A program made the position numbers and the translations under genes. From positions 1,779-65,778 of the forward strand of contig JAWODW010000037.1 in assembly GCA_046483065.1 (NCBI GenBank): a DNA stretch of 64,000 nucleotides, in the 5' to 3' direction. This document shows, piece by piece, positions 5,751-59,665 of the stretch (position 1 is the first letter of the stretch; every line of letters starts with the position of its first letter). The notes under the pieces were generated by a model. It did not search any database and had not been told where the DNA came from. It saw only the letters and a program-made list of their open reading frames with translations. The DNA is from Longimicrobiales bacterium (GTDB taxonomy: Bacteria; Gemmatimonadota; Gemmatimonadetes; Longimicrobiales; RSA9).

Positions 5751-5762
5751 CCTTTTCGTCTG

Positions 5763-5880
5763 CCGCAATCCTGACGCGATGCCGCGATCGGCACACGTCA
5801 GCCGGACAGCTTATGTCTGCGAAATAACCTACTCGGCTATGCGCCGATCAGGCGATCGCTTGCCCGTGTCAGGTTGCGGA
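5763..5880 (-). ncRNA. Candidate structured RNA (118-nt long imperfect hairpin) between a T-run and the 5720..5750 terminator
   Basis: CCGCAATCCTGAC (5763..5775) pairs with GTCAGGTTGCGGA (5868..5880). Inner helices are GCGAT..GATCGGC / GCCGATC..ATCGC. Strand and identity are unknown. Confidence 0.3.
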
Positions 5881-14587: not shown

Positions 14588-14623
14588 AAGGCGCGGCCGA
14601 TCGCCCTGCGGGCGCCCGACCGC

Positions 14624-14819
14624 GCGACTGGGGGATGATCCGGGTCGTTCTCGGTTCGCGGTGGAGTCCGCCATGCCCCGGCGGAGTCAGACTGGGGGAC
14701 TGGGTGGATCGCGCGAGGTTGTCGGCCGCAATCCCCCAGTCCCCCAGTCGGGGATCAGAGAGGAAGGCCGGGACAAACCATGCAACACAGCCGTGCCGCG
14801 AACCACATCCCCCAGTCGC
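14624..14819. repeat. Nested inverted-repeat element of the GACTGGGGGA family
   Basis: Outer arms GCGACTGGGGGAT (14624..14636) / ATCCCCCAGTCGC (14807..14819). Inner arms GACTGGGGGACTGGG (14690..14704) / CCCAGTCCCCCAGTC (14735..14749). All four are perfect reverse complements. Related copies are at 1091..1108 and 35170..35182. Confidence 0.85.
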
Positions 14820-24203: not shown

Positions 24204-24644
24204 ATGGACGTGATCTTCGCAGTCGTCGCCGACGCAGCCAACGTGAGCCGGGAAGGCAAGCTCAACATCATGGGCATCTTCGACCGGGTCTTCGCCCGGA
24301 AGGTACCCGCCCGGTTCCCGCCGATGCAGCTCGTGATCCGGCTGGAAGCCGACTACGCCGAGCTCGAGACCGAGCACGCCATCCGGGTACAGCTCAGCGA
24401 CCCGGACGACGAGTCCGTCTTCGATATCGACGGCAGCTTCACCCCCCGGGGCGGCCAGCCCGGCCAGAAGGTCCCGGTCAACCACGTCCTCCAGCTCGGG
24501 AACCTGCCGCTCCAGCGTACGGGCACCCACCGGATCCTCATCTGGATCGATGGCGACCTGAAGCGGGAGCTGCCGATCCACGTGGTCCAGGCCCCCGACG
24601 CCCCGCCCCCGGGCGCCGACGGCGGCGATACACTGGTCCACTAG
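24204..24644 (+). CDS. Hypothetical small soluble protein
   Basis: ATG 3 nt after the upstream stop. High GC3. MDVIFAVVADAANVSREGKLNIMGIFDRV N-terminus. No family assigned with confidence. Confidence 0.7.
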   Translation: MDVIFAVVADAANVSREGKLNIMGIFDRVFARKVPARFPPMQLVIRLEADYAELETEHAIRVQLSDPDDESVFDIDGSFTPRGGQPGQKVPVNHVLQLGNLPLQRTGTHRILIWIDGDLKRELPIHVVQAPDAPPPGADGGDTLVH

Positions 24645-24810
24645 CCGGTCCACCGGTCCACTGGACGATCCCCCGGGCACCGGCCGGTCCATGGGGGCAG
24701 CAGCTCTCTCCGTTCGGCAGCGCCGGACCCGCGCCACCGGACGGACGAGTTCTTGCACTTCTCTTCATCGGACCGGCGGAGCGAAACGCTTCCTGAACAA
24801 GGAGTTGGCC

Positions 24811-28491: not shown

Positions 28492-28595
28492 GGTCACGCG
28501 TCCCTTGTGCGGGGGTCGAAGTCTGCCTATGTGCGGGAAGGGCCGGACGCCCAAAGTGGGAAGGGATCCGGGATGATGCCAGGGGATTGGTGATC

Positions 28596-28621
28596 GGGGT
28601 CGGGGTCGGGGTGGGGTCGGG
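28596..28621 (+). other. Canonical G-quadruplex motif in the BNR/MATE divergent intergenic region
   Basis: GGGGTCGGGGTCGGGGTGGGGTCGGG: four G4 tracts with 1-2-nt loops, followed by further G-runs to 28660. Confidence 0.7.
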
Positions 28622-28718
28622 CCCGGGCTCGGGGGGCGGAGTGGGAAGCGGGATGGGGCGGGGAAAGGCCCCGTCCGGCCTCCCGCCCGGCCACCCCTCC
28701 CGCTACCTTCCCGGCGCC

Positions 28719-30089
28719 ATGAAACCGTTCGCCGCCGCCGTCGCCGCTCTCCCGCCCCGTCGCGAGTTCCGCTCGCTCGTCCGCCTGGCGCTGCCCATCG
28801 TGGCGGTACAGGTGGGGCTGATGTTCATGGGCGTGGTAGACACACTCATGGTGGGCCGGGTCAGCGCCGCAGCGCTGGCGGCGGTGGCCCTCGGCAACCT
28901 GTACTTTTTCTTCATCGCCATCTTCGGGATGGGCGTGCTGTTCGGCCTCGACCCCGTCGTATCTCAGGCGGTGGGCGCCCGGGACGACGCGGCCATCGCC
29001 CGGGCCGTCCAGCGGGGGCTGGTCATGGCCGCCGTGCTGGCCGCCCTCTCCCTCGCGGCGCTGCTGCCGGCCGAGGCGATCTTCACCGTGCTCCGCCAGC
29101 CGCCGGACGTCATCCCCCTGGCCGCTGGCTACGTTCACGCGGCCACCCCGGGGATCGTGGCCTTCCTCGCCTTCATCGTGCTCCGGCAGACGCTCCAGGC
29201 CATGGACCGGGTCCGGCCCATCGTGGTGGCCATCGTGGCGGCGAACCTGGTGAACGTGCTCACGAACTGGCTCCTGGTCTTCGGCCACTGGGGCTTCCCC
29301 GCCCTCGGCCCCATCGGGACGGGGTGGGCCTCGACGTTCAGCCGGTGGACGATGCTCGTCTTCCTCGCGGTGCTCACGCTGCGACGCCTCGGCCCTTACC
29401 TCCGGCCCGCCGGCCGCGTGGTCCTCCAGCTCCGGCCGCTGTGGCGCATGCTCCGCCTCGGCGCGCCCATCGGCGCACAGTTCCAGCTCGAGATGGGCGC
29501 GTTCGCCGTGGTGGCGCTCCTCATGGGCTGGCTCGGCACCGCCCAGATGGCCGGCCACCAGGTGGCCATCAACCTGGCGTCGCTCACGTTCATGGTGCCC
29601 GTGGGCATCGCCCAGGCCGGCGCCATCCGCGTAGGGCAGGCCGTGGGGCGCGACGACCCCGCGGGCGCACGCATCGCTGTGAAGTCGGCCCTCGTGGCCG
29701 GCGCCGGGTTCATGTCCTTCACCGCCGTCGTGTTCCTGGCCTTTCCCGGGTTCCTGACCCACCTCTACACCGAGGAGCCCGAGGTGATGGCCGTGGCCGT
29801 GACGCTCATCCCCATCGCCGGCGTCTTCCAAGTGGCCGACGGGCTCCAGGTGGTCTCGGCCGGCGTGCTCCGCGGTATCGGCGACACCACCGCCCCCTTC
29901 GTGGCCAACCTCCTGGCCTTCTGGATGGTCGGGCTCCCCGTGGGCATCTACCTCGGCTTCCGCACCGCCGCCGGGCCGGTGGGACTCTGGTGGGGGCTCG
30001 TCGCCGGTCTCGGCCTCGTGGCCCTCTTCCTCGTGCTCCGGGTGCGCAATCGGATGCGGAGGACGCTGGCCCGGATCGTCATCGATTAG
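28719..30089 (+). CDS. MATE family efflux transporter
   Basis: Start MKPFAAAVAALPPRREFRSLVRLALPIVAVQVGLMFMGVVDTLMVGRVS. 12 TM helices with internal duplication (second half LRLGAPIGAQFQLEMGAF...). Confidence 0.9.
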   Translation: MKPFAAAVAALPPRREFRSLVRLALPIVAVQVGLMFMGVVDTLMVGRVSAAALAAVALGNLYFFFIAIFGMGVLFGLDPVVSQAVGARDDAAIARAVQRGLVMAAVLAALSLAALLPAEAIFTVLRQPPDVIPLAAGYVHAATPGIVAFLAFIVLRQTLQAMDRVRPIVVAIVAANLVNVLTNWLLVFGHWGFPALGPIGTGWASTFSRWTMLVFLAVLTLRRLGPYLRPAGRVVLQLRPLWRMLRLGAPIGAQFQLEMGAFAVVALLMGWLGTAQMAGHQVAINLASLTFMVPVGIAQAGAIRVGQAVGRDDPAGARIAVKSALVAGAGFMSFTAVVFLAFPGFLTHLYTEEPEVMAVAVTLIPIAGVFQVADGLQVVSAGVLRGIGDTTAPFVANLLAFWMVGLPVGIYLGFRTAAGPVGLWWGLVAGLGLVALFLVLRVRNRMRRTLARIVID

Positions 30090-30091
30090 TA

Positions 30092-30185
30092 GGCGTGGAG
30101 ACGCGGAGGAGCGCGGAGGCGCGGAGGGGGCGTCGCGAGGCGGGGATTCGGGTGGGGATCGAGGGACGCGACGAGGCCGACTTCA
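30092..30185. repeat. Single arm of a CGCGGAG heptad element
   Basis: GGAGACGCGGAGGAGCGCGGAGGCGCGGAGGGGG... starts 3 nt after the MATE stop and ends at the stop of the lipoprotein fragment. Confidence 0.7.
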
Positions 30186-30299: not shown

Positions 30300-30315
30300 T
30301 GCAGAAACGTCGACC

Positions 30316-30526
30316 CCCAAGGCGGACCGCCCAAGGCGGACCGGGTTTTACTTACCCGCCCAAGGCGGACCGCCCGCCCAAGGCGGACCGGGTTTTACTA
30401 TTTACCGCCGGGCCCTGCATGGCCTCATTCGCTGCCGATCTGCCCCGAATTCGGGCCGTTGGGATAGCAAATCGGGACATCCAGATAGCTGAAATGGCCA
30501 AATTGTAAAAAGTAAAACCAGGTCCG
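30316..30526. mobile_element. MITE-like element: duplicated left end and inverted right end around an AT-richer core
   Basis: CCCAAGGCGGACCG occurs four times in two ~43-bp tandem units, each ending CGGACCGGGTTTTACT (30336..30351 and 30385..30400). The inverted partner AGTAAAACCAGGTCCG is at 30511..30526. The core has a 12-bp palindrome CCCGAATTCGGG (30444..30455). No transposase is present. Confidence 0.45.
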
Positions 30527-35272: not shown

Positions 35273-35570
35273 TTCGCGGCGGGGCTGCGTTCGCGGTGAC
35301 TCCGGGCTGGCTTGCCGGTGGAATCTGAGCACCGGGGTTTGAACCGCTTCCGGTCTTCCATGCGGCGCGGTTCGAACCGGCTCGATCGGGTTGACGTGGA
35401 CCGACGCGGGCGGTTCAAAGGCGGCGGCGAGCCGGCCGGCAGACCACCCCACGCCCGAACCAACCCCGATCTCAGTCGAGCACCCACCCCCACTCCCCCC
35501 ATCGTACCGCGAACCCAACCAGGCCCCGAACGCTCAATCCAACCCCGCGAACCCCGACTCCACCGCGAAC
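35273..35570. repeat. Long palindromic intergenic element with GTTCGCGG / CCGCGAAC arms
   Basis: GTTCGCGG at 35273 and 35290. CCGCGAAC at 35507, 35545 and 35563. The left arm GCGTTCGCGGTGA also occurs at 5497..5509. Confidence 0.7.
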
Positions 35571-37511: not shown

Positions 37512-38531
37512 CTAGAACGTCTCCAGCTCGCCGGCGTCTACACGGTCCAGCACGGTGCGGATCCGGGCCCACAGCTCATCCAGCTCCAGGTTCGTGAGCC
37601 CGAACTGGATCATGCCTTCCTCCCGGGGCACGCCCCGGTTCTCGTCGATCTTGGCCGTGGGCGGGACCCGTTCCAGGCGGCCATCCTCGCGCACCCGGAA
37701 CTGGGCCACCACGTAGAGCGCGTCGTCCAGCTCGCCCCGGGTCAGCCGCCGCAGCCGCTCGACGGCCTCGCCGGGGACGCGGTCCACATGCAGGTCCCGC
37801 CACACCGTACCCCGCGGACTCGCCGGACTGCGGAACGCCACCCCGTTGTCGACGGCATAGAGCCTGGGCGGTCCCCGGGTGGAGACCAGCACGTTGCCCG
37901 GGTTGGAGTCCACGTGCCGGATCAGGTGCGTGAAGAGGTTCAGGTAGCCGAGGCGCCGGGCGTACGCCGGGTCCCCACCGAGGCGTGCGGTGTCCGGCGC
38001 CTCGGCGGCGTCCACGTTCTGGAGCCAGTACTGCACGGCCACCAGCACCGAGCCCGTTCCCTCGAACGTGGGCTCCGCCTCCGGGTCGAGTTGACGGTAC
38101 GCGGTTAGTGGTAGCTCCCGGATCACGGTGGGCGGGACCACCCAGTCGGCCTCGTCGAAGAAGAGCTTCTGGAAGGCGTACGCCGCCGCCTCGTAGCGGG
38201 GCTGGTTGTTGATGGCGAACCCGCCCGGCGGCGCCTTGGCCCACTTCACCCGGATGCGCCGCCCATCGCTGAACTGGATGTCCGTCTGCTGGGTCCGATC
38301 GCCCTGCCACCGGTTGTCGCGGATCCCGACGATCTGGAACGGGTCGCCGGCCAGGCGGGCCTCGACGGCCGTGGGGGAGAAGACGTAGTTGGGGCCGTAC
38401 GTGGACGCCTGCGGATCGCTCGTCGGGAGAGCGCTGTCCGGGCGGCTCCCGCCCTGGGCCACAGCGGGAGCCGCCACAACGGCGGCCGCCACCGCCAGGA
38501 CCGAGAGGCGTGTTCGGGAGAATGTTCGCAT
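37512..38531 (-). CDS. Signal-peptide protein with PI3/PI4-kinase (type II PI4K-like) motifs, paralogue 2
   Basis: Signal peptide MRTFSRTRLSVLAVAAAVVAAPAVAQG. Motifs VKWAKAP, NNQPRYEAAAYAFQKLF...VVPPTV, RHVDSNPGNVLV, YAVDNGVAF. C-terminal FGLTNLELDELWARIRTVLDRVDAGELETF matches paralogue 1. Confidence 0.65.
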   Translation of the reverse strand: MRTFSRTRLSVLAVAAAVVAAPAVAQGGSRPDSALPTSDPQASTYGPNYVFSPTAVEARLAGDPFQIVGIRDNRWQGDRTQQTDIQFSDGRRIRVKWAKAPPGGFAINNQPRYEAAAYAFQKLFFDEADWVVPPTVIRELPLTAYRQLDPEAEPTFEGTGSVLVAVQYWLQNVDAAEAPDTARLGGDPAYARRLGYLNLFTHLIRHVDSNPGNVLVSTRGPPRLYAVDNGVAFRSPASPRGTVWRDLHVDRVPGEAVERLRRLTRGELDDALYVVAQFRVREDGRLERVPPTAKIDENRGVPREEGMIQFGLTNLELDELWARIRTVLDRVDAGELETF

Positions 38532-38649
38532 GGGGGCAACATACCGGCGGCCCGGGGGCCGCGGCCAGTATCTTGCCCCGGGCCGCCGTCACAGGCCAGA
38601 TTATGGACACTTCCCTCGCAACACGTCACTCATCAGGCAGACCGTCGCC

Positions 38650-40449
38650 ATGACCGCCCCTAATGTGGACCCGCGTTCCATGGAGGTCGAGGGCCTGGCG
38701 CTCGATCCCGGCGAGCAGAGAGCGGTCCGGGCCCGGCAGCTGCGCACGCTGAACACCCGCACGGTCCCCCTCCTGCGGCTCCTGGGCGCCAACTTCCTGG
38801 TGTTCGGCGCCGTGGTGCACAACAGCCTCATCCTGGGCCGGATCGACTGGACGGCGATCCTCGTCTACACCGCCTTCGTCGAGCTCTACTGTCTGGCCAG
38901 CTGGTGGGCCCTCGACCGATGGTACGACCCCGATGCGTCGCCGGACCTGGCACTCCTCTTCCTGGTGGCGGACCTCGTCCCCATGGCCATGGCCGTCTAC
39001 CTCACCGGCGCCGACGCCAGCTGGATCTTCTGGGTCTTCCTCGTCCGGGTGGTGGACCAGACCCACACGTACTTCATGCGGGCGTTCATGTTCACCTGGC
39101 TCGCCACGCTGGCCTATGCATCGGTGATCGGGTGGGCGGTGGTGGTGGACGGGGCCACGGTCAACCTCCCCGGCGAGATCGCCAAGCTCATGTTCCTGGT
39201 CCTGGCGGGGTCGTACATCTCGTTCACCGCCCGCACATCCGAGCGGGTCCGATCGCGCCTGGCCGACGCCATCCGCACGGCTCGACAGTCGGTGACCGAG
39301 CTGCGGGTGAAGTCGCGACAGCTGGAGCAGGCCCGGGAGGCCGCCGAGGCCGGGAGCCAGGCAAAGAGCCAGTTCCTGTCCCGGGTCAGCCATGAGCTGA
39401 GGACCCCGATGAACGCCATCCTCGGCTTCGCCCAGCTCCTCCAGTTGGACGAGATGACCGAGGAGCAGCAGGCCCACGTCGACGAGATCCTGACGGGCGG
39501 CCGCCACCTGCTCGACATCATCAACGAGGTCATGGACATCGCCCGGGTCGAAACAGGGTCCCTGGCCAAGGAGGTGGAGCCGATCCGGCTGGGGCCCGTG
39601 CTCCGGGAGGGGCTGGAGCGGGCGCAGCCCACCGCCGAGCGCCGGAACGTGACGCTCCCGGAGCGGCCGCCGCCGGGCTCGGACGCCTGGGTCATGGGCA
39701 GCCGGCGGAAGGTGCGGCAGGTCTTCGCCAACCTCCTCGACAACGCCATCAAGTACAACAGCTCGCCGGGCACCGTGTCGCTGGCCTGCGGGCACCGGGA
39801 CGGGACCCTACGGGTGAGCGTGACCGACACGGGCCCGGGGCTCCCAGCCGGCCGGATCGAAGCGGCGTTCACCCCCTTCGAGCGCCTCGGCGCGGAGAAG
39901 ACCGACCCCGACGGCACGGGGCTCGGCCTCCCGGTGGCACGATCCCTGGTGGAAGCCATGAACGGACGGATCGGCGTGGACTCGGAGCCGGGCTCCGGGA
40001 GCACCTTCTGGTTCGAGCTCCTGGAGGCCGAGCCCCCATTGCAGGAGGAGGCCAGAGTGGTGGACGCGGAGACCACCGGACCCCTGGTGCTCTACGTAGA
40101 CGACAAACCGGAAAACGTCGTGCTCGTCCGCCGGATCCTGGCCCGGCGCCCCACGGTCCGCCTGATCTCGTCACCGCTGGGGCTGAAAGGGCTGGAAACG
40201 GCACGGCAGCGCCGACCCGACCTGATCCTCCTCGACCTGGAACTCCCCGACATCGCCGGGCGAGAGGTGCTGACCCGGCTGCAGGACGACGTCGCCACCC
40301 GCGAGATCCCCGTGGTGGTGGTGAGCGCCGAGGCGGAACCGAGCAAGGTGGAGCGGCTCCTGGCCGAGGGCGCACGGGCCTACTTCGTCATGCCCTACGA
40401 CGTGGCGAAGTTCCTCGACGTGGTCGACGACCTGCTCGACCTGCGGTAG
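38650..40449 (+). CDS. Hybrid sensor histidine kinase (polytopic membrane sensor + HisKA/HATPase + C-terminal receiver)
   Basis: Start MTAPNVDPRS at ATG 38650. About 6 TM helices. H-box FLSRVSHELRTPMNAI, DTGPGL, GLGLPVA. Receiver VLYVDDKPENV...LILLDLELPDIAG. Confidence 0.88.
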   Translation: MTAPNVDPRSMEVEGLALDPGEQRAVRARQLRTLNTRTVPLLRLLGANFLVFGAVVHNSLILGRIDWTAILVYTAFVELYCLASWWALDRWYDPDASPDLALLFLVADLVPMAMAVYLTGADASWIFWVFLVRVVDQTHTYFMRAFMFTWLATLAYASVIGWAVVVDGATVNLPGEIAKLMFLVLAGSYISFTARTSERVRSRLADAIRTARQSVTELRVKSRQLEQAREAAEAGSQAKSQFLSRVSHELRTPMNAILGFAQLLQLDEMTEEQQAHVDEILTGGRHLLDIINEVMDIARVETGSLAKEVEPIRLGPVLREGLERAQPTAERRNVTLPERPPPGSDAWVMGSRRKVRQVFANLLDNAIKYNSSPGTVSLACGHRDGTLRVSVTDTGPGLPAGRIEAAFTPFERLGAEKTDPDGTGLGLPVARSLVEAMNGRIGVDSEPGSGSTFWFELLEAEPPLQEEARVVDAETTGPLVLYVDDKPENVVLVRRILARRPTVRLISSPLGLKGLETARQRRPDLILLDLELPDIAGREVLTRLQDDVATREIPVVVVSAEAEPSKVERLLAEGARAYFVMPYDVAKFLDVVDDLLDLR

Positions 40450-40504: not shown

Positions 40505-41278
40505 CTACGCGTCCCGGTCCAGGACGTACACGTTCCGCTGCGCCGACGGTAGCAGCACCATCCGCAGGATGTTGACATGGGCCGGCAGGTTCGCCACGTA
40601 CGCCACGGCGTCGGCCACATCGTCGCCGGTGAGCGGCTGGAACCCGTCGTAGACGCTCTCCGCCCGCTCCTCATCACCGTGGAACCGCACCACGCTGAAC
40701 TCCGTCTCCACGAACCCCGGGTCCACGCTCGAGACCCGGAGCCCCGTCCCCGTGACGTCCAGGTTGATGGCCTCCGTCAGCGCCGTTACCGCGAACTTGC
40801 TGGCGTTGTAGACGTTGCCCTTCGGATAGACCTGGTGGCCGGCCGTGCTGCCGATGTTGATGATATGGCCCCGGTCCGCCTCGATCATCGACGGGAGCAG
40901 GAGCCGCGTCACGTTCAGCAACCCCTTCACGTTCGTGTCGATCATCCGGTCCCAGTCGTCGAAGCTGCCCTCCTGGACCGTGTCGAACCCGGCGGCCAGC
41001 CCGGCATTGTTGACCAGGATGTGGGGCGGCCCCGCCTCGTCCAGGAGCCGGTCCACCGCCGCCCGCACGGCGTCCCGGTCCCGTACATCGACGCTCGCCA
41101 CGTGGACGGCCACGCCGTGCTCCCGGGCCAGCTCGTCCGCCAGCCGCTTCAGCCGCTCTTCCCGACGGGCCCAGAGCGCCACGTCGGCGCCCTCGGCCGC
41201 GAGCCTGCGCGCGCAGGCCTCTCCGATCCCCGAGCTCGCACCCGTCACCAGGGCGAGCTTGCCTTCGATTCTGTTCAT
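40505..41278 (-). CDS. SDR family NAD(P)-dependent oxidoreductase
   Basis: Start MNRIEGKLALVTGASSGIGEA (TGxxxGxG). NNAG. Catalytic Y..NASK (YNASKFA). Confidence 0.9.
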   Translation of the reverse strand: MNRIEGKLALVTGASSGIGEACARRLAAEGADVALWARREERLKRLADELAREHGVAVHVASVDVRDRDAVRAAVDRLLDEAGPPHILVNNAGLAAGFDTVQEGSFDDWDRMIDTNVKGLLNVTRLLLPSMIEADRGHIINIGSTAGHQVYPKGNVYNASKFAVTALTEAINLDVTGTGLRVSSVDPGFVETEFSVVRFHGDEERAESVYDGFQPLTGDDVADAVAYVANLPAHVNILRMVLLPSAQRNVYVLDRDA

Positions 41279-41293: not shown

Positions 41294-41582
41294 ACGCGAA
41301 GACACGAAGTCAAATGCGCGAAGGCGCGGAGAACGGCAGCAGGGCACGCGAAGGCGCGGAGATCGCGAAGGGGTGCGTCGTGGGCCGAAACCTGTTCTCA
41401 GATCCCGACGACCGGTTCCGGGTGGAGACGGTGGGCTCGACGTTCGCTGCGAAGCCCGACCCGCCCGGACAACCCCATGTCACGAAGTCTGCTCCGCCCG
41501 GATGGTCCGACCCCACCGGCGAGCCCGCCCTTCGCGATCTTCGCGTCTTCGCGTGGGATGCAGTGCTTCGCGTCTTCGCGCG
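41294..41582. repeat. Palindromic CGCGAAG/CGCGGAG heptad element
   Basis: The left arm CGCGAAGGCGCGGAGATCGCGAAGG is the reverse complement (21/25) of the right arm CCTTCGCGATCTTCGCGTCTTCGCG. The right arm nearly duplicates 5641..5670. Confidence 0.85.
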
Positions 41583-41594
41583 AACCCGAGGGTG

Positions 41595-41636
41595 GGACCC
41601 ACCGCGTCGCCCGGACCCACCGCGTCGCCCGGACCC
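41595..41636. repeat. 18-bp tandem duplication (GGACCCACCGCGTCGCCC x2.3) abutting the DinB stop codon
   Basis: Copies at 41595..41612 and 41613..41630, with a partial third at 41631..41636. Confidence 0.9.
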
Positions 41637-42163
41637 TACCGATACCGCTCGTCGAGGATCGCCCGGTGGTGGATCTCGTGGCCGGCGATGACCCAGGCGA
41701 TGCCCCGGGGCGTGAACGTCACGCCGCTGGCGGTGCCCGTCCGGAGCAGTGCTGCATCGGTGAGGCCGCGGAAGAGAGCCGCGGTGGATGCCCGGACCGC
41801 CGCGAGCTCGGCCTTCACGCCGTCGAGGGTGCGGGGCGCCAGGTCATCGGGAACCACGTAGTCGTCCTGCGCGAAGCCCGGCAGCGGCGTGGCATCGCCC
41901 CGGGCGATCCGGAGCGCACGATAGCCGAACACCCGCTCGGTATCGGCCAAATGGACCAGGACCTCCTTCAGACTCCATTTCCCGGCGGCGTACCGGTAGT
42001 CGGGGTCCACGCCGAGAGCGTCGACCACGCGGAAGGTCTCCTCCAGCTGTCCGGCCAACGCCGAGAGCAGGCTCCCCGCCGGTCGGTGCTCCAGGTAGCC
42101 GCGGTAGTACTCGGCTACCTCGTCCGGGCCGGGACGGCCGTCCAGCACGCCGATGCCGCTCAC
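41636..42163 (-). CDS. DinB-family (DinB_2-like) four-helix-bundle metalloprotein
   Basis: GTG 42163 forms a GTGA overlap with the upstream stop. EVLVHLADTERVFGYR and IAGHEIHHRAIL His motifs. Confidence 0.75.
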   Translation of the reverse strand: MSGIGVLDGRPGPDEVAEYYRGYLEHRPAGSLLSALAGQLEETFRVVDALGVDPDYRYAAGKWSLKEVLVHLADTERVFGYRALRIARGDATPLPGFAQDDYVVPDDLAPRTLDGVKAELAAVRASTAALFRGLTDAALLRTGTASGVTFTPRGIAWVIAGHEIHHRAILDERYR

Positions 42164-51800: not shown

Positions 51801-53462
51801 TCAGACCGTGCGCAGGTACTCGTGCACCGCCCCTACCGTCGCCGATCCCTCGCCTACGGCGGCGGCGACGCGCTTGCCGGAGCCGTGGCGGGCGTCGCCG
51901 GCGGCGAAGATGCCGGGGACGCTGGTCTCGTAGAGGAGCGGGTCGCGGTCGGCGGTCCAGCCTGCGGGGCGACCGCCGTCACGCATGACGTCGCGGCCGG
52001 TGAGGATGAAGCCCTTGGGGTCGAGGGCCACGAGGTCGGCCACCATGGCGGTGCGGGGGGCGCTGCCGATGAAGACGAACACGGCGGCGGCGGGGCGGGT
52101 GGCGGCCTCGCCGGTGGCGGTGTCCCGGAGCTGGAGGGCCTCGAGGCGCTCGTCGCCCTCTACGCCCTCCACCACGGTGTTGGGCAGGACGATGATGTTG
52201 GCCGTCTCGCTGATCCGGTCGACCAGGTACTGTGACATGGACTTCCTCAGGTCGGGGCCCCGGATGAGGATGGTCACGGTACGGGCGAGGCGGGAGAAAT
52301 GGACGGCGCCCTGCCCCGCCGAGTTGGCACCGCCCACCACGAAAACGTCGCGGTTTCGGTAGAGGGCGGCCTCGCTGAGGGCGGAGCCGTAGTAGACGCC
52401 GGCGCCGACCTTCTCCTCGAGGTTGGGCACGTCCAGGCGCCGGACCTCCATCCCGCTGGCGATGACCACGGCGTAGCAGCTGAGCTCGGAGCCGTCGGCC
52501 AGCTCCACCACGCGGTACGGGTCGCCGCGGCGGACGCGGACGGCCTCCTGGGCGGTGAGCATCTCGACGCCGAAGCGCCGGGCCTGTGCGGCGGCGCGGC
52601 GGGCGAGCTCGGCACCGGTGACGCCGTCGGGGAAGCCGAGGTAGTTCTCGATGAAGGAGCTGGTGCCGGCCTGGCCGCCGGGCGCGGCGCGCTCGACCAG
52701 GAGCGTGGTCAGCCCCTCCGAGGCGCCGTACACGGCCGCGGCCAGCCCGGCGGGCCCGCCGCCCACGATGACCAGGTCGTAGAAGCGCTGCTTCGGGCGG
52801 GTGTCGAGGTTCGACTGCTCGGCCAGCTCCCGGGCGTCGGGCTGGATCAGCGTGGTCCCGTCGGGATAGAAGACCACAGGCAGGCGGGCCAGCTCCGGAT
52901 CGACGGCCTCGACGGCGGCGCGCATGGGGGCGTCGGTGTCGATGTCGCACCACTGGTACGGGATCTGGTTGGCGGACAGGAACCGCTTCGCGGCGTAGCT
53001 GGTCGGTGAGAACGCGGTGCCGCAGACGCGGATCCCTTCGAAGAGCGGACCGGCGGCGGCGCTCCACTCCTCGAGGAGCGCGTCCAGGTGCGGGTAGAGC
53101 CGCTCCTCGGGCGGCTCCCACGGCTTGTCGAGGTAGCGGTCCAGCCGGATCTGGTTGATCCCGGCCACGGCGCTGCTCGTGTCCGCGTACGCGGTCAGCA
53201 GCACGCGCCGGGCGTCGGGGTACATCTCCAGCGCGCGCACGAGGAACTCGGTCCCGCGCATCTCCGGCATGCGCTCATCGACGACGAAGAGGGCCACGGG
53301 CACACCGGTCTTCTTCAGCTCCCGGGTGACCTCCAGCGCCTGCGCGCCGGAGTCGGCCTTCACCACCCGGTAGTCCTTCCCGTAGCGGGACCGGAGGTCA
53401 CGGCCGACGGCGCTCAGGACCTCGGCGTCGTCATCCACGGCCAGGAGGACGGGGCGGGTCAC
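51801..53462 (-). CDS. Fused response regulator receiver / thioredoxin-disulfide-reductase-like FAD oxidoreductase
   Basis: Receiver LLAVDDDAE...LFVVDERMPEMRG...LTAYAD...YLDKPW. FAD site VIVGGGPAGLAAAVY, NAD site VVGGANSAGQGA, GIFAAGD. No CxxC redox motif was noticed. Confidence 0.85.
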   Translation of the reverse strand: MTRPVLLAVDDDAEVLSAVGRDLRSRYGKDYRVVKADSGAQALEVTRELKKTGVPVALFVVDERMPEMRGTEFLVRALEMYPDARRVLLTAYADTSSAVAGINQIRLDRYLDKPWEPPEERLYPHLDALLEEWSAAAGPLFEGIRVCGTAFSPTSYAAKRFLSANQIPYQWCDIDTDAPMRAAVEAVDPELARLPVVFYPDGTTLIQPDARELAEQSNLDTRPKQRFYDLVIVGGGPAGLAAAVYGASEGLTTLLVERAAPGGQAGTSSFIENYLGFPDGVTGAELARRAAAQARRFGVEMLTAQEAVRVRRGDPYRVVELADGSELSCYAVVIASGMEVRRLDVPNLEEKVGAGVYYGSALSEAALYRNRDVFVVGGANSAGQGAVHFSRLARTVTILIRGPDLRKSMSQYLVDRISETANIIVLPNTVVEGVEGDERLEALQLRDTATGEAATRPAAAVFVFIGSAPRTAMVADLVALDPKGFILTGRDVMRDGGRPAGWTADRDPLLYETSVPGIFAAGDARHGSGKRVAAAVGEGSATVGAVHEYLRTV

Positions 53463-54913
53463 GGCGCGTCGGGGGGCTCGCCGGTGACGGGGCCCGCGGC
53501 GGCGGCCAGCGGGAGCGTCACGCGGAACTCGGTCCGCCCCGGTCGGGACTCGAAGCCGATGTCGCCCCGGTGGCGGCGGACGTGTGCCCGGGCGATGTCG
53601 AGGCCCAGCCCCGTGCCCTCGCCCGGGTCCTTGGTGGTGAAGAACGGGTCGAAGACCCGGCCCTGGTCGCCCGCATCGATGCCGGGCCCGTCATCGATGA
53701 CCCGGACCACCAGCGACGAGCCCTCGGGCTTGACGGTGACCGCCACACTGCCGCCCAGGTCCACGGCGTCCAGGGCGTTGTCCAGCAGGTTCATCCAGAC
53801 CTGCTCCAGGTCGCCGCCGATGGCGTGCACGCGGGGGAGCCCCGGGGCGACGTCGATGGTCACGCTCGCCGACTTGTCCCGGGCCTTGTGGCCCAGGATC
53901 AGGAGCGTGTCCCTGAGCCCGCCCTCCACGTCCACCGGGCCGGCGACCCGGGCCTGGTCCATGTGGGTGAGCCGCTTCATGGCGCCCACCAGTGAGGAGA
54001 TCTTCGACGCGGCCCGCTCGTTCTCCGCGGCCAGCAGGCGCACCGCGCAGCCGGCGGCCACCCAGTCCAGCGCGGCGTCGAGGGCCGGGCCGTCCAGGTG
54101 CCCGGCCAGCTCGTCGAGGACCTCCGCGGTGACCGCCGTCTCCGCCAGCGCCTCGACGGCCGAGCCGTCGACGCCGTGGGCCTCGAGCCACCCGGCGATC
54201 CGGTCCTCCCGGTCGGCCCGCTCCAGCGGGGACAGCGACACCGTGGGCGGCGGGGCCATGCACGCGGTCCGCACCCGGTCGACGGCCTCGAGCTGCTCCG
54301 GCGTGAGCCCCACGCCGGCCAGCGCCCGGGCCGCCCGGTCGGCGTCGTTCATGGATGCGTCGAGCCGCTGCGCGCTCCGGGCCACCGCCGACGCGGGGTT
54401 GTTGAGCTCGTGGGCGAGGCCGGCCGAGAGCTTCCCGAGGGAGACCATCTTCTCGTCCTGGAGGTCGCTGGTCCGGAACGCCCTCGCCCGATCGAGCATC
54501 ATGTGCACGCACGCCGCCGTAATGCCCGGGCACTCCCGGATCAGCTCCGGGAAATGGTCGGCGGCCAGGGAGAGGGTCTCCGCGGCCGTCTCCGCACGGG
54601 TGCTGCCCCGGGCGACCCCCATCCGGGAGAACGGGAGCAGGCCGGTCACGTCCCCCGCCTGCCATTCCACCACCTTGTGGGTGCCGGAGCCCCGGTCCAC
54701 GTAGTTGGCGATCCGCCCGCTCAACACCACTTCCAACCCGATGCCCTCCGCGGCCCAGTGCTGGCCCTCGCGCAGGAGGTGGTCCCCGGCCTCGAACCGG
54801 CGGAGCGCACCCCGGCCCGCGAGCCACGAGAGCTCGGGCTCAGGCACCTGCGCCAGCGTGCGGTGCCGACGGAGTCGCTCGATCACGTCGAGAGGGGCTT
54901 GCTCGGCGTCCAT
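53459..54913 (-). CDS. Cytoplasmic histidine kinase with N-terminal CAP-type cNMP-binding-like domain
   Basis: No TM helices. N-terminal beta-barrel-like FEAGDHLLREGQ...LSGRI. H-box LSAGLAHELNNPASAV, NLLDNALDA, DDGPGI, GTGLGLDIA. 4-nt overlap with the RR-oxidoreductase gene. Confidence 0.85.
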   Translation of the reverse strand: MDAEQAPLDVIERLRRHRTLAQVPEPELSWLAGRGALRRFEAGDHLLREGQHWAAEGIGLEVVLSGRIANYVDRGSGTHKVVEWQAGDVTGLLPFSRMGVARGSTRAETAAETLSLAADHFPELIRECPGITAACVHMMLDRARAFRTSDLQDEKMVSLGKLSAGLAHELNNPASAVARSAQRLDASMNDADRAARALAGVGLTPEQLEAVDRVRTACMAPPPTVSLSPLERADREDRIAGWLEAHGVDGSAVEALAETAVTAEVLDELAGHLDGPALDAALDWVAAGCAVRLLAAENERAASKISSLVGAMKRLTHMDQARVAGPVDVEGGLRDTLLILGHKARDKSASVTIDVAPGLPRVHAIGGDLEQVWMNLLDNALDAVDLGGSVAVTVKPEGSSLVVRVIDDGPGIDAGDQGRVFDPFFTTKDPGEGTGLGLDIARAHVRRHRGDIGFESRPGRTEFRVTLPLAAAAGPVTGEPPDAP

Positions 54914-55009: not shown

Positions 55010-55047
55010 TTGTCGGACGTGTATACTCGTACTAGTATACTTGTATA
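55010..55047 (+). promoter_or_regulatory. vapBC promoter with overlapping palindromic operator; transcript probably leaderless or near-leaderless
   Basis: TTGTCG (55010..55015), 17 nt, then TAGTAT (55033..55038). The ATG is at 55048 with no SD. 20-bp palindrome GTATACTCGTACTAGTATAC (55021..55040, 9/10 arm matches). Confidence 0.55.
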
Positions 55048-55350
55048 ATGTCCGAAAGACCGAAGCGCGTGCGCGAACAGGCCGTCGTGTACATGAGCGC
55101 GGCCGACCGGGAACTGCTGGAGCGGCTGGCCGAGGAGACCGGGCTCGCCCGCACCGAGCTGTTCCGCAGAGGACTGCGCCGATTGGCGGAGGAGCTGCTC
55201 GACGAGCGTGCGCCCGGCTCGTCGTTGGACTACCTGACGGGGATCGCGGACGAGACGGACGCCCCCGCGGACCTGTCGGAGCGGCACGACGACTACCTGT
55301 ACGGGGGCGGCTACGCGGACGGGGACCGCGCGGCGAACGGAGACGACTGA
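55048..55350 (+). CDS. vapB: Ribbon-helix-helix (CopG/VapB-type) antitoxin
   Basis: QAVVYMSAADRELLERLAEETGLARTELFRRGLRRLA = beta-strand + two helices of an RHH fold, with an acidic disordered tail. Directly upstream of the PIN gene. Confidence 0.8.
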   Translation: MSERPKRVREQAVVYMSAADRELLERLAEETGLARTELFRRGLRRLAEELLDERAPGSSLDYLTGIADETDAPADLSERHDDYLYGGGYADGDRAANGDD

Positions 55351-55351
55351 G

Positions 55352-55759
55352 GTGCGCGCCCTGGTCGACACGAGCGCGCTCCTGGCGCTGAGCCACGCAC
55401 GGGACCAGCACCACGCCCGGGCCGTCGAGATGGCGGCGCGCCACCGGGCGGCGGGCGGCACGTACGTCGGCACCACGCTGGTCCTCTCGGAGTTCTACTC
55501 GCACCTCCTGTACCTGAGGGACGCGGCGGTGGCGCGCACGGCGCTGCGGCACCTGCTGGACGACCCGATCCAGTCGTGGGTGGAGGTCGGTCCGGAGCTG
55601 GTCGGTGAGGCGTCGAGCCGCTGGCTGGCGCGCTACGACGACCAGGCCTTCTCGCTCGTAGACGCCGTCAGCTTCGAGGTCATGCGCACCGAGAATGTGG
55701 CCGCCGCGTTCGCGTTCGACCACCACTTCGAGGTTGCGGGCTTCGAGCTGCTGCGGTGA
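55352..55759 (+). CDS. vapC: PIN-domain ribonuclease toxin
   Basis: GTG start 1 nt after the vapB stop. LVDTSALLAL (Asp 1), SEFY (Glu), SLVDAVSFEVM (Asp), FAFDHHF (Asp). Confidence 0.85.
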   Translation: MRALVDTSALLALSHARDQHHARAVEMAARHRAAGGTYVGTTLVLSEFYSHLLYLRDAAVARTALRHLLDDPIQSWVEVGPELVGEASSRWLARYDDQAFSLVDAVSFEVMRTENVAAAFAFDHHFEVAGFELLR

Positions 55760-55787
55760 GGGGCATCGAGGGGGAGAGGCCCGGCTA

Positions 55788-56008
55788 GGCGCGGAGGCGC
55801 GGAGTACTCGCGGAGAACCGATCGGGAGTTGATCCGGTGAAGCTGGATCCGCCGCAGAGGGTGCACCTTCGCGGCGTGCCAGGTTTCCGAGAATCGAGTC
55901 CTGTCCAGCCCGGAGCTCATCGTCTTCCGCCGCGAACCCCGGCCTCGCCCGGATCAACGCTACTGCAGTTCTCCGCGTTCGCTCCGCGACTCCGCGGCTC
56001 CGCGGTTC
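55788..56008. repeat. Palindromic CGCGGAG heptad element, copy A (upstream flank of the serine-hydrolase gene)
   Basis: Left arm GGCGCGGAGGCGCGGAGTACTCGCGGAGAACC, right arm GTTCTCCGCGTTCGCTCCGCGACTCCGCGGC. Shares blocks CGCGGAGAAC, GATCCGGTG, CGTCTTCCGCCGCGAA, CCTCGCCCGGATCAA and TCCGCGGCTCC with copy B. Confidence 0.85.
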
Positions 56009-56096
56009 CCGACACCTCAGCCTTGCCGAAGCGCCGTCCATGCCGTACCGGTGAACGTGCGACCCGTGAGCCCGCCCACACACCAGGAGACCCCCC

Positions 56097-57896
56097 ATGC
56101 ACGCTCGACCGATCCGCTGGACGACCACACTGCTCGGCCTCGCCTTCGTACTCGTCCTGGCCGCCGCCTCCGACGCCGCCGCCCAGCGGTTCCCGGCCGA
56201 CAGCTGGATGCAGTACCAGAACGTGGAGGAAGCCGGGTTCGACGCCACGAAGCTGGACAGCGCGCGGGCGAGCTGGGAGGCGCTGCCGTCGTCGGCCTTC
56301 CTTGTGGTGGCGGACGGCGCGGTGGTGGCCGCGTGGGGCGACGTGGGCCGGCGGTTCATGTGCCACTCGGTGCGGAAGAGCTTCCTGTCGGCGCTGTACG
56401 GGGTCTACTGGGACCGGGGCGAGCTCGATCTCAACAAGCAGATGGAGGACCTGGGGATCGACGACCACCCGCTCCCGCTGATGGAAACCGAACGGGAGGC
56501 GCGGATCCTGGACCTGCTGAAGGCGCGGTCGGGCGTCTTCCACCCCGCCGCGTACGCGGGCCGGACGGACTCGCGGCCCCGGGGGAGCGAGGGGCCGGGG
56601 CGGTACTTCGCGTACAACAACTGGGACTTCAACACGCTGGCGTATGTCCTCGAGCAGGAGACGGGCGCCGAGGTCTTCACCGCCTTCGACGAGCACTTCG
56701 CCGGGCCGCTGGGGATGGAGGACTGGCGGGTCAGCGACGGGTACTACCACTACGAGCGGGACAAGAGCCGCTACCCGGCCTATCCGTTCAGGATGTCGAG
56801 CCGCGACGCCGCCCGCTTCGGGCTCTTCTTCGCCCGCGAGGGCGTCTGGGACGGTACCCGGATCCTGTCGCGGAACTGGGTCCGGCGCAGCACCGCGACG
56901 TACTCCATCGACGACGAGGTCCGGGGCTACGGCTTCATGTGGTGGACGTACCTCGAGCCCCGCTTCCTCCAGCACGGGATGTACTCGGCGATCGGGGTGG
57001 GCAACCAGATGATCGCAGTGCTCCCGGACCTCGACATGGTGATCGTGAACCGGGCGGACACGTACGAGGGCGAGGGGACCCCGCTGGCCGGGCTGCTGGA
57101 CCTCATCGAGGAGGTCCTCGAGGCACGGACTGGCGACCCCGTCGCCGATCCCGCGCTGGCACCGCTCACCGTCGAGGCGGATCCCATGATCACGATGGCG
57201 TCGGGCGACCGACTGGCCGGGTTCCAGGGCGAGTTCCCATACCCGCCGGCGCCGCTGGGGCTGCCGGTTCGGGCCACGCTCGAGATCGAGCCCGGCGACG
57301 GGCACCTGGTCTCCCGCTCGCCCACTGCCGGTACCTTCCGGCTCTACCTTCAGGATGACGGCACCTTGGTCGCCGAGGACAGCCGTGAGCGGTACTGGCC
57401 CGTGGACGACGACGGCGCCTTCGCCGGTCTCGCCGCCGCGGACCACCTGGTCAGCGCAGCGGTCCTCACCGCCGCCGACGGCCGGACCGGCCGGGCCCGG
57501 GCGCTTTTGAACCGCGTGGAAGCCGCGGCCGGCCCGCTGCCGGAGGTCGGGACCGCCGTGGTCGATCTCCTGGCCGGCGAGACGCGAGCGGCCGAGCGGG
57601 CCGTCCGCGCCCTCGGCGAAACGCACGATCCGGGCACCGTGGCCGGCTCCGTTTTCCGCGCGGGCCTCCAGCTCGCCGAGCTCGAACGATACGGTGCCTC
57701 GGCCCGGGTCCTCGAGCTCGCCACCCGGCTCCGGCCCGATGCCGCTCTCTTCTGGGCCACGTTGGCCGAGGTCCTCGCCGCCGCCGACCGCGACCGCGAT
57801 GCGGCCCGGGCGGCCGAGCGCGCACTGGAGATCGACCCCGAGAACGAGACTGCCCGGGAGACGCTCGACCGGCTCCGGGAGGTTGAGAGGCGGTGA
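56097..57896 (+). CDS. Secreted serine hydrolase (beta-lactamase/PBP class C-like) with C-terminal TPR-like region
   Basis: Signal peptide ...LVLAAASDAAAQ. SxxK motif HSVRKSF, YxN motif YAYNNW. C-terminal helical repeats ending LEIDPENETARETLDRL. Confidence 0.85.
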   Translation: MHARPIRWTTTLLGLAFVLVLAAASDAAAQRFPADSWMQYQNVEEAGFDATKLDSARASWEALPSSAFLVVADGAVVAAWGDVGRRFMCHSVRKSFLSALYGVYWDRGELDLNKQMEDLGIDDHPLPLMETEREARILDLLKARSGVFHPAAYAGRTDSRPRGSEGPGRYFAYNNWDFNTLAYVLEQETGAEVFTAFDEHFAGPLGMEDWRVSDGYYHYERDKSRYPAYPFRMSSRDAARFGLFFAREGVWDGTRILSRNWVRRSTATYSIDDEVRGYGFMWWTYLEPRFLQHGMYSAIGVGNQMIAVLPDLDMVIVNRADTYEGEGTPLAGLLDLIEEVLEARTGDPVADPALAPLTVEADPMITMASGDRLAGFQGEFPYPPAPLGLPVRATLEIEPGDGHLVSRSPTAGTFRLYLQDDGTLVAEDSRERYWPVDDDGAFAGLAAADHLVSAAVLTAADGRTGRARALLNRVEAAAGPLPEVGTAVVDLLAGETRAAERAVRALGETHDPGTVAGSVFRAGLQLAELERYGASARVLELATRLRPDAALFWATLAEVLAAADRDRDAARAAERALEIDPENETARETLDRLREVERR

Positions 57897-57917
57897 TACG
57901 GGCACACGGTCAACCGC

Positions 57918-58140
57918 AGAGACGCGGAGACGCGAAGTACACGCGGAGAACTGCTGCGGGGGTCGATCCGGTGGATTCCGAGCTCGCGGCGGTGGATTCA
58001 AGATTCGCGACGAGGCAGGGCTCCGGGCGTCGGAGTCCGGGATCCGCCAGAGACCCGGCGTCTTCCGCCGCGAAGGGCGCCTCGCCCGGATCAAACCCAA
58101 AACCCTCCCGTACGCTCCGCGCTTCCGCGGCTCCACGGTT
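57918..58140. repeat. Palindromic CGCGGAG heptad element, copy B (downstream flank of the serine-hydrolase gene)
   Basis: Same orientation and the same conserved blocks as copy A. Starts ~20 nt after the stop at 57896. Confidence 0.85.
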
Positions 58141-58270: not shown

Positions 58271-58720
58271 ATGGCCGAAGCAGAGAAGGAATTCGATCTG
58301 ATGCTCCGCCGGCTCGAGGGCTTCAAGTTCGACACGGAGTTCGACGGCGAGAAGATGGCGAACCTGATGTTCGACGAGCCGGACCCCATCGGCGACGACG
58401 AGGGTCCGAACGCCGCCCGGGTGCTGAGCGCCGCCGTGGGCAACTGCCTGAGCGCGAGCCTGCTCTTCTGCCTGCAGAAGGCGCGGGTCACGGTGGAAGA
58501 CATGACCACCGACGTCCACGGCGTCGTCACCCGGAACGAGGACAAGCGGCTCCGGGTCACGGCGATCAAGGTCCGCATCAACGCCACCATCCCGCCCGAG
58601 GACCAGGACCGGGTCCCCCGCTGCCTCAAGGTCTTCGAGGATTTCTGCGTGGTGAGCGGCAGCGTCCGGAAAGGCATCGACATCGATGTCGAGGTGGACG
58701 TGCTGAACCCATCAAGCTGA
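58271..58720 (+). CDS. OsmC-like family protein
   Basis: Start MAEAEKEFDLM at ATG 58271. AAVGNCLSASLLFCL and FEDFCVVSGSV Cys motifs. Confidence 0.75.
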   Translation: MAEAEKEFDLMLRRLEGFKFDTEFDGEKMANLMFDEPDPIGDDEGPNAARVLSAAVGNCLSASLLFCLQKARVTVEDMTTDVHGVVTRNEDKRLRVTAIKVRINATIPPEDQDRVPRCLKVFEDFCVVSGSVRKGIDIDVEVDVLNPSS

Positions 58721-58721
58721 C

Positions 58722-58790
58722 GCGGAGGCGCGGAAGGGCGCGGAGACGCAGAGGTCTGACCGGTGGCATTCGTGCCCCGGCGAGGCTTTC
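58722..58790. repeat. Single arm of a CGCGGAG heptad element
   Basis: GACGCGGAGGCGCGGAAGGGCGCGGAGACGCAGAGG lies between the OsmC-like stop (58720) and the stop of the ppa remnant (58792). Confidence 0.7.
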
Positions 58791-58791
58791 T

Positions 58792-58905
58792 TCACCCGGC
58801 GGTGTCCACCTCGTACTTGTTCCGCCCGCCCCGGGGGATCTCGATGTACGCGTTCAGGCGGTCGGGTGGGTTGGGGCCGGTGGGCAGGTCGTGAAGCGGA
58901 TGCAT
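58792..58905 (-). pseudogene. ppa: Inorganic pyrophosphatase, N-terminal 37-codon remnant
   Basis: MHPLHDLPTGPNPPDRLNAYIEIPRGGRNKYEVDTAG* matches the family-I PPase N-terminus (..H.IP.G...P...N..IEIP.GS.NKYE.D). It then stops ~140 codons early, next to the CGCGGAG repeat arm 58722..58790. Confidence 0.7.
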
Positions 58906-59125
58906 GGCAGGCGACGCGGGGTGAGGGGAACGGTCGTCGTGACTTCCGATCTCAACGTGCCACGGCCGGGGGCGGCGCGGCAAGCTCCGGGGTGGGGCCA
59001 ACCATTCGCGCGGGTCCGACCTTCCGAGCGAAGCGGCGGTCGCGGCTCGGGAAGGCTGCCGGGCACAGCTGGTCGCGGGTCACGAGAGACCGGCGGCGGC
59101 TCGTCGGGCGGGGCCATCGGCTAGC

Positions 59126-59540: not shown

Positions 59541-59665
59541 CCTTGCGAGCCCCCGCAGGGGGCGAGCCTGTTGCGGCCGACGGCCGCCTGTTGCGAACGA
59601 AGTGAGCCTGTTGCCGGCCGCAGGCCGGCCTGTTGCGAGGACCGGAGGGCCGAGCCTGTTGCGAG
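59541..59665. repeat. Array of five GAGCCTGTTGCGAG-type repeats (20-26 bp period) interleaved with short GC hairpins, between feoB and the 56-aa ORF
   Basis: CCTGTTGC starts at 59567, 59587, 59607, 59629 and 59655. The spacers are mini-hairpins (CCCCCGCAGGGGG, GGCCGACGGCC, CCGGCCGCAGGCCGG, TCGCCGTCAGGCGA). A terminal half-copy CCTTGCGAG merges into the SD of the small ORF. Confidence 0.9.

Follow-up and report, generated by a model that had tools for sequence, protein, structure and literature searches.

Between the genes of a 64,000-nucleotide stretch of DNA from a Longimicrobiales bacterium (assembly GCA_046483065.1, contig JAWODW010000037.1) lie long palindromes whose arms are arrays of the heptads CGCGGAG and CGCGAAG, and two of these, elements A and B, bracket a serine hydrolase gene. 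This stretch, which we call the window, has ∼70% GC and is the part of the source genome that was covered here. The locus raises the question of whether the heptad arrays form a genuine repeat family and, if they do, whether its members are mobile DNA, recombination substrates or stabilisers of 3′ untranslated regions, the three readings that the original prediction had offered for the seven copies or arms that it listed. The observation is real, and is best read as a local population of a hairpin-forming repeat whose copies are here long, GC-rich and partly compound. [quoted passage not shown]

Heptad arrays and the architecture of the element

Heptads as such are not in excess in the window, which holds 67 (CGCG[GA]AG and CT[CT]CGCG together) as compared with 64 in dinucleotide shuffles. 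Clusters of at least three heptads number six, whereas the shuffles gave 0.115 on average and never more than 2. R1, a sequence-only model of one arm trained on 83 arms that all come from other organisms, identified 14 window arms at E<0.03, which all lie in six of the seven listed loci (spans 5445–5708, 30092–30127, 41317–41586, 55787–56004, 57919–58134 and 58718–58746), with plus-strand arms always on the left and minus-strand arms always on the right. Six loci therefore stand, four as full palindromes and two as solo arms; those predicted at 30092 and 58722 do carry family arms by R1, but lack a hairpin partner. The seventh, at 35273–35570, is a different palindrome, which we rejected as a member because it has another motif, no R1 match and background pairwise scores (fold z −0.9). 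Applied to control loci of ∼1.36 Mb in all (L001–L080 and L214–L225, from many phyla including other Gemmatimonadota and not selected for the motif), R1 matched in L063 and L219 only, as compared with the 14 arms in 64 kb of the window; the lack of matches in the other control loci indicates that the family is specific and its abundance lineage-dependent. The similarity between copies also outlasts a composition-aware control, and so is not the background expected of GC-rich DNA. The family of abundant MITE- or REP-like intergenic palindromes that had been proposed is thus supported as genuine.

A position matrix of 218 ends gives an A-rich flank, ggTTCA-CGCGRAG-r-CGCGRAG-r-CGCGRAG and a purine-rich stretch, with the mirror image at the opposite end. 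The unit is a ggTTCA head, degenerate in the window genome, followed by 2–6 CGCGRAG heptads with a period of 8–9 nt, and a complete element consists of two such units, inverted and heads-out, around a variable core; its consensus is ggTTCA-(CGCGRAG-r)x2–6 ... mirrored CTYCGCG arrays-TGAAcc. Elements are 50–340 bp long, have no internal open reading frame (ORF), and are predicted to be able to fold, as a whole, into a long imperfect hairpin or cruciform. Among pairs of arms within 450 nt in loci from IMG/VR, 59 have the purine arm ahead of the pyrimidine arm and one has it behind, and an inverted partner within 500 nt lies downstream for 52% of arms as compared with upstream for 0.7%. Interiors are unrelated across lineages; among sphingomonads they are conserved, with small GCCGCGAAGCGGC-type hairpins. 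Within an element the arms match one another: the G/A position of the heptad agrees between arms in 17–18 of 19 elements (9.7 expected), and the one-nucleotide spacers frequently differ. Many copies are compound or nested (41294–41586 in the window, and in L163, L169, L174, L120, L117 and L219).

The four full copies in the window fold as hairpins (Table 1), in agreement with their original description as long imperfect palindromes. A perfect 17-bp terminal inverted repeat claimed for one of them was found on checking the sequence, and belongs to the element at 5445–5666 (5447–5463, ATTCACGCGAAGACGCG, against 5650–5666). An internal block said to be common to positions 5646 and 41546 is present at both, but the two are one indel apart. 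The compound element at 41294–41586 has three sub-arrays on its left side (41294–41311, 41317–41333 and 41345–41372) and two on its right (41528–41557 and 41564–41586), with outer arms pairing with outer and inner with inner; it is flanked by two minus-strand genes and lies ∼17 nt upstream of the start codon of 40505–41277. Element A follows the vapC stop (55759) and precedes the hydrolase start (56097); its left arm reads GCGCGGAG GCGCGGAG TACT CGCGGAGAAC, and an inner inverted module pairs GTTGATCCGGTG with CCCGGATCAAC. Element B, whose left arm reads AACCGCAGAG ACGCGGAG ACGCGAAG TACA CGCGGAGAAC, has the hydrolase stop (57896) on one side and the OsmC start (58271) on the other. The homology of A and B extends over their whole length, and the two share one orientation, as had been proposed (identity 72% direct and 62% inverted; local score 128 direct and 60 inverted), and the remaining copies resemble them, by pairwise scores, in the arms only. 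Both solo arms adjoin a stop codon: that at 30091–30127 begins 2 nt past the stop of ORF 28587–30089 and has no inverted partner, and that at 58718–58754 (TGA CGCGGAG G CGCGGAA GGG CGCGGAG A CGCAGAG) overlaps the OsmC stop. For the window copies as a group the first array begins 1–52 nt from the upstream stop codon, a wider range than the 3–20 nt first given.

Table 1. Heptad elements, a second palindrome and the genes around elements A and B, in window coordinates
Feature	Position	Strand	Details
Full palindromic element	5445–5666	.	Left purine arm 5445–5488 with canonical head ATTCA-CGCGAAG; right arm 5645–5666; RNA fold −146.7 kcal/mol, z −8.9; R1 matches 5445–5463(+), 5475–5488(+), 5645–5665(−)
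Extra weak solo right arm GTTCTCCGCGTCTCCCGAA	5694–5708	−	R1 match E 0.02; just beyond the 5446 element
Solo purine arm GGCGTGGAGACGCGGAGGAGCGCGGAGGCGCGGAG	30091–30127	+	R1 matches 30092–30110, 30112–30127; fold z −1.7
Separate palindrome, not a family member	35273–35570	.	Arms GTTCGCGG / CCGCGAAC; ∼300 bp
Compound nested palindromic element	41294–41586	.	Fold −163.4 kcal/mol, z −5.6; five R1 matches, E 1e-7 to 7e-4
Histidine kinase	53459–54913	−	
vapB-like ORF	55048–55350	+	No Pfam match
PIN-domain vapC	55352–55759	+	Pfam PIN, E 6.6e-8
Element A	55787–56008	+	Left arm 55787–55818; right arm 55970–56008; fold z −4.8; R1 matches
Serine hydrolase, beta-lactamase fold with C-terminal TPR	56097–57896	+	Pfam PF00144, E 5e-21
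Element B	57912–58140	+	Left arm 57912–57951; right arm 58113–58140; fold z −2.2; R1 matches
OsmC	58271–58720		
Solo purine arm	58718–58754	+	R1 match E 7e-4; no hairpin, z −0.15

Other repeats accompany the heptad elements. Three perfect tandem copies of a 16-nt unit (CGCCGCGCTGTAGGAC, 5350–5397) lie immediately ahead of the 5446 element; the unit includes TAG, so that the stop codon of the upstream gene falls in the repeat, the copy that supplies it depending on the reading frame. Further short-period tandem repeats (14–20-nt units, 2–3 copies) occur in or beside intergenic DNA at 41595–41641, 30312–30390, 24631–24691 and 15697–15741, one of them directly adjoining the 41294 element. The palindrome at 35273–35570 contains GGTTCGAACC-like motifs, with pairing confined to its terminal arms, and a repeat finder returned another large palindrome at 871–1000, with arms of 42–48 nt (CCCCAAACAACC... 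/ GGGGATTCCC...GGGGATCCCCCAAAC), that is unrelated in sequence to the heptad family. At 14510–14650 the related locus L001 holds a palindrome of another type whose arms are also tandem repeats, here arrays of the hexamers CTGTAC / GTACAG, flanked by CTCCCTCTCC / GGAGAGGGAG; this suggests that such arms recur among the palindromes of the window's lineage.

Distribution beyond the window

Copies also occur outside the window. In IMG/VR, a scan with three heptads as the criterion matched at least 120 contig stretches, of 48–75% GC, many of which have a plus-strand array and then, 10–300 nt on, a minus-strand array. In plasmid records, BLAST of a 34-nt consensus matched Sphingobium, Sphingomonas, Sphingopyxis and Novosphingobium, 12 and 7 places on the two megaplasmids of Gemmatirosa kalamazoonensis, and solo arms on plasmids of the Nostocales Trichormus, Anabaena and Nostoc; none of these matches carries an annotated feature. 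Sphingopyxis indica pMC4 has four complete copies of 130–140 bp in 40 kb. Heptad elements also occur on a phage-like IMG/VR contig with an SU10-type capsid gene (L169), where they lie among structural genes at 3156–3233 and 5559–5768. One of them separates the major capsid gene from an unannotated upstream ORF, and the capsid protein has its nearest named relatives in Burkholderiales genomes.

A pattern specific for the subfamily of A and B had no match in metagenome contigs, and the head of this subfamily had none in viral contigs; 72 viral-contig matches to a relaxed version were taken as chance, since none of the 72 has an adjacent heptad. For the window gene at 38389–40449, a search for orthologues in metagenomes returned only relatives of 24–30% identity. 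An array in Burkholderia stagnalis (L204, 19890–20025) was set aside as a one-strand tandem (CGCGGAGA)n array and not a palindromic element; its (A/G)CGCGGAG / CACGGAG octamers, which have no inverted partner, make it either a microsatellite-like relative of the arm motif or a look-alike.

The original prediction could match the elements to no named family, and our searches came back equally empty. Rfam gave no match to the whole window at the gathering threshold and only generic matches of the microRNA-hairpin kind at an E-value threshold; exact element strings, heptad words and topical keywords retrieved no description of the family from open-access text, in which it may carry another name; and it is in neither the 2024 Nucleic Acids Research survey of MITEs nor the survey of GTAG/CGTC REP sequences (PMC3733652). 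We could not find the heptad-armed family described in Rfam or in the searchable literature, and it is apparently undescribed there.

Presence and absence at orthologous sites

If the elements move, related genomes should differ in carrying them, and such differences were found. In Sphingobium, the spacer between parA and parB is filled in five replicons by an element of ∼165 bp that starts 0–7 nt past the parA stop, and is empty, at 62–65 nt, in S. indicum B90A pSRL2 and in strain AntQ-1. No target-site duplication is present at the junctions of filled and empty sites. The orthologous parA–parB copies keep a hairpin of 48 pairs, nine of which are altered on both sides, and form a decay series (CGCGGAG to CGCAGAG; CTCCGCG to CTCTGCG to CTTTGCG to TTTTGTG). 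In Sphingobium sp. TomTYG72 (L209, ∼755–900) a classical MITE of ∼145 bp lies in the same spacer directly beside the heptad element; its terminal inverted repeat, GGGCCGCTCGACATTCAG, is 18 bp long, and it has a TA duplication and serves as an internal control. The ends GTTTCAC...GTGAAAC resemble half-sites of parS, a likeness that we put down to chance, since the entire element lies between the halves.

The parA–parB copies also bear on whether the elements are RNA hairpins that the host selects, as terminators, 3′-end stabilisers or RNase III sites, for a useful structure in the transcript. Such a role would fit the position of every window copy downstream of a gene end, the A-rich left and T-rich right outer flanks that part of the copies have in lower-GC contigs, which are like those of a bidirectional terminator, the stems of 23–30 bp, which are suitable substrates for RNase III, and the retention of pairing in orthologous copies, in part via G–U intermediates. 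Nevertheless, in 14 elements the sense transcript folded no better than the antisense, which was usually of equal or greater stability; this counts against the stabiliser role first suggested. The window copies have no U-tract and a terminator scan was empty at A and B. One copy sits within the parA–parB operon spacer and two of the four in Sphingopyxis indica lie between divergent genes, and on these grounds we rejected intrinsic terminators. Function alone would explain neither the near-identical 30-nt arms across phyla nor the differences in presence between relatives. We therefore regard host-selected RNA hairpins as an unlikely account of the family.

Another account that does without mobility is that the arrays are binding sites for a DNA-binding or nucleoid-associated protein, or structural DNA that extrudes as a cruciform or adopts the Z form at CACGCG/CGCG. 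The regular 8–9-nt spacing of the heptads does resemble an iterated binding site, and a palindromy that is symmetric between the DNA strands accords with the equal fold energies of the two strands. Against this, with a period of 8 nt neighbouring sites do not share a face of the helix, one conserved binder would be needed in at least three phyla and in phages, and the filled and empty orthologous sites, the nesting and the lineage-specific abundance would all go unaccounted for. This is the account to which we give least credence.

The genes around A and B differ between relatives in the same manner. In the window the order is histidine kinase, vapB-like ORF, vapC, A, serine hydrolase, B, OsmC, solo arm, truncated pyrophosphatase and FeoB, the solo arm adjoining the truncated gene at a synteny breakpoint. 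L063, which is ∼85% identical to the window in nucleotide sequence, keeps the hydrolase gene with the hydrolase-proximal (right) arm of A and its 5′ flank, and lacks vapBC, the left half of A, and B; where the window has B, it has two copies of a 62-bp direct repeat (GGATGTCACATAAYGGACGCGTAGCGACCCTTAT..., 2100–2220). In L001 the histidine kinase stands beside OsmC, without vapBC, A or the hydrolase gene, and a degenerate orthologue of the right arm of B is found next to a 24-mer upstream of OsmC that is identical in both genomes. All three elements at 54–59 kb coincide with synteny breakpoints.

The pair A and B around the hydrolase gene had been likened to a cassette; on such a reading they would delimit a hydrolase cassette beside a vapBC cassette, in the manner of integron attC sites or pdif modules. 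The likeness to attC sites, which are recognised as folded single-stranded DNA, is considerable: both are imperfect palindromes with conserved ends and a centre of variable sequence and length, both lie immediately 3′ of ORFs, and recognition of a folded single strand is the mode that we propose for the heptad element as well. The breakpoints, the toxin–antitoxin pair adjoining A and the L219 hydrolase, which is 68% identical, has another gene context and also has heptad elements on both sides, would suit a cassette. Yet only two of eight hydrolase loci, the window and L219, are flanked on both sides; L063 has the one arm of A upstream, and the other five (L218, L220, L221, L223 and L225) have no element at all. 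L001 retains the degenerate right arm of B though it lacks the hydrolase gene, and at parA–parB the element alone was inserted, with no gene. In contrast to integrons, no co-oriented cassette arrays were seen; the neighbours of the copies are housekeeping genes in mixed orientation, and some copies, as in Sphingopyxis, lie between divergent ones. By inspection, the general ends GGTTCAC...GTGAACC carry no R″/R′ core consensus and misfit the attC cores RYYYAAC / GTTRRRY, and those of B (GGTCAAC...GTTAACG) mismatch both. Pfam scans of the window covered seven ORFs near A and B, with all their matches, and, with two of these rescanned, 46 ORFs, for which the 25 most widely shared of 61 families were considered; neither an integrase nor intI was among the matches near A and B or among those 25 families. 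The cassette reading is thus quite improbable, and we rate it well below that of selected RNA hairpins and barely above that of binding sites.

The neighbourhood has several further features. Directly upstream of vapB, within a genome otherwise of 70% GC, an AT-rich palindromic stretch (GTATACTCGTACTAGTATACTTGTATA, 55010–55047) looks, from its sequence, like a promoter or operator of the toxin–antitoxin pair. The hydrolase matches, at 100% identity, a protein that NCBI lists as ‘serine hydrolase [Longimicrobiales bacterium]’, and FeoB is 86–92% identical to FeoB of metagenome-assembled genomes of Longimicrobiales and Gemmatimonadaceae. The pyrophosphatase remnant (58792–58907, minus strand) comprises 37 N-terminal codons and abuts the solo heptad arm; at the corresponding position L001 has an intact pyrophosphatase and a small lipoprotein gene, 1.2 kb of extra DNA (12381–13575), and L074 has a C-terminal remnant alone (1110–1250). 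Decay of the gene at this one spot appears to have happened independently in two lineages. Right after the feoB stop a hypervariable tandem array occupies the same position with a different unit in each locus: 20–26-nt GAGCCTGTTGCG-type units in the window (59566–59665), (GTGGATCG)x8 in L001 (12233–12300) and (GGCTGGCG)x4 in L074 (1020–1050).

Known repeats and a proposed route of mobilisation

In architecture the heptad element is most like a REPIN. REPINs and bacterial interspersed mosaic elements (BIMEs) are inverted doublets of REP sequences, mobilised by the Y1 transposases called RAYTs (REP-associated tyrosine transposases), and REPIN–RAYT systems are described as vertically inherited. 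The heptad element shares with them a very high copy number, an extragenic location and a conserved unit of 25–35 nt with a short terminal tag; mostly heads-out inverted doublets, in addition to singletons, around a less conserved spacer; a doublet that folds as a long hairpin; and the lack of both target-site duplication and ORF. It differs in that its unit is a direct CGCGRAG array and not itself a palindrome (the solo arms fold no better than shuffles, z −1.7 and −0.15), in having no RAYT found nearby, and in occurring in several phyla and on phage-like contigs. The tags differ too: that of the heptad family is TTCA, within the ggTTCA head, whereas REP families carry GTAG or CGTC tags (PMC3733652).

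Comparison with MITEs (Correia/NEMIS, ERIC/IRU, RUP and Nezha) is similarly divided. A length of 50–340 bp, terminal inverted repeats, an absence of ORFs, multiple intergenic copies, presence that differs between related genomes (the parA–parB sites; B, missing from L063) and hairpins when transcribed are common to both. In contrast to the TomTYG72 MITE next to it, the heptad element has no target-site duplication; its terminal repeats are tandem heptads of variable number and its interior is non-homologous between lineages; and it has no known parent insertion sequence (IS). The element thus fails both the sequence features that define REPs and the duplication test of MITEs. Cyanobacteria reportedly harbour short tandemly repeated heptamers (STRRs) and small dispersed repeats, which, like the heptad elements, are intergenic arrays of tandem heptanucleotides and small palindromic elements that nest in each other. 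STRR units (CCCCAGT, TTGGTCA and similar) have no relation to the heptads in sequence, and STRRs do not form inverted arm pairs; to our knowledge, STRR arrays are restricted to heterocystous cyanobacteria.

Several results weigh against mobility of the REPIN or MITE kind. Within the scope of the Pfam scans given above, no transposase or integrase was found. No RayT-like ORF is present in the window or in any array-bearing locus, and tblastn with RayT gave no match in sphingomonad or Gemmatirosa replicons of the plasmid collection, a search that leaves main chromosomes outside, so that a distant partner gene may yet exist. The flanks of a RAYT from the cyanobacterium Kovacikia hold ordinary REPs of the GTAG type and no heptad arrays. 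No autonomous copy was found among the five long-range arm pairs examined, which enclose phage or hypothetical genes only and no transposase-like ORF. Solo arms make up about half of the total, an unusual proportion for a MITE. Between the filled and empty sites that we compared, identity is only 80–90%, which places the junctions to within a few nucleotides, and no recent insertion was seen between near-identical strains. Finally, in 54 complete elements no direct repeat was found at offsets of 0–9 nt as compared with shuffled pairings; this lack of target-site duplication excludes the classical MITE mechanism, and the actual mechanism can only be inferred.

Nevertheless, a mobile repeat accounts for what the data show: a unit that is discrete and polar, its breadth of occurrence, the differences in presence between relatives, nesting, matched arms and the lack of target-site duplication. 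The whole element is inserted as one unit into intergenic DNA, in many cases directly behind a stop codon, and no target-site duplication is made; we propose that it is mobilised in trans via a single-stranded hairpin intermediate. The pattern of insertion suggests an enzyme that would recognise a single-stranded hairpin, be it an HUH/Y1 (RAYT-like) or IS110-like enzyme or a recombinase, and argues against a DDE cut-and-paste transposase. Copies lie inside or beside others, which yields the compound, nested hairpins; the number of heptads would vary by replication slippage of 8 nt, and the matched arms could result from copying of the whole element, from template switching within it, or from both. 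Copies decay by C-to-T transitions, as seen at parA–parB. As side effects in the window genome, copies coincide with synteny breakpoints and would put very stable hairpins into intergenic transcripts. The elements on phage-like contigs point to one possible path from phylum to phylum, with phages as putative vectors.

A bolder version of this proposal, which we put forward as speculation, is that the repeat may be a pan-bacterial selfish element of the hairpin kind, which phages would carry from host to host and which would be mobilised by a route undescribed for prokaryotic repeats. Either a widely conserved host or phage enzyme might recognise the TTCAC-capped heptad stem in single-stranded DNA, or hairpins might be inserted in a manner coupled to replication, without a dedicated transposase. 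If true, either route would explain why near-identical 30-nt arms occur in Alphaproteobacteria, Gemmatimonadota and Cyanobacteria without target-site duplication or a partner IS.

If the family is indeed undescribed, a common repeat of sphingomonads, Gemmatimonadota and many uncultivated bacteria of soil and water has so far had no name, no model and no known mobilising enzyme. Such repeats lead to false ORF calls, can interrupt assemblies and are markers of rearrangement hot spots, and a model of the R1 type could flag them in annotation. Arms of tandem heptads, no target-site duplication and a range across phyla fit neither a vertically inherited RAYT–REPIN system nor an IS-derived MITE, and the family is therefore a tractable case for a new mechanism, with Sphingobium and Gemmatirosa as cultivable hosts for phylogenetic profiling of the mobiliser. 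In the window itself, the elements would explain the local mosaic of gene content at vapBC, the hydrolase, osmC and the pyrophosphatase pseudogene.

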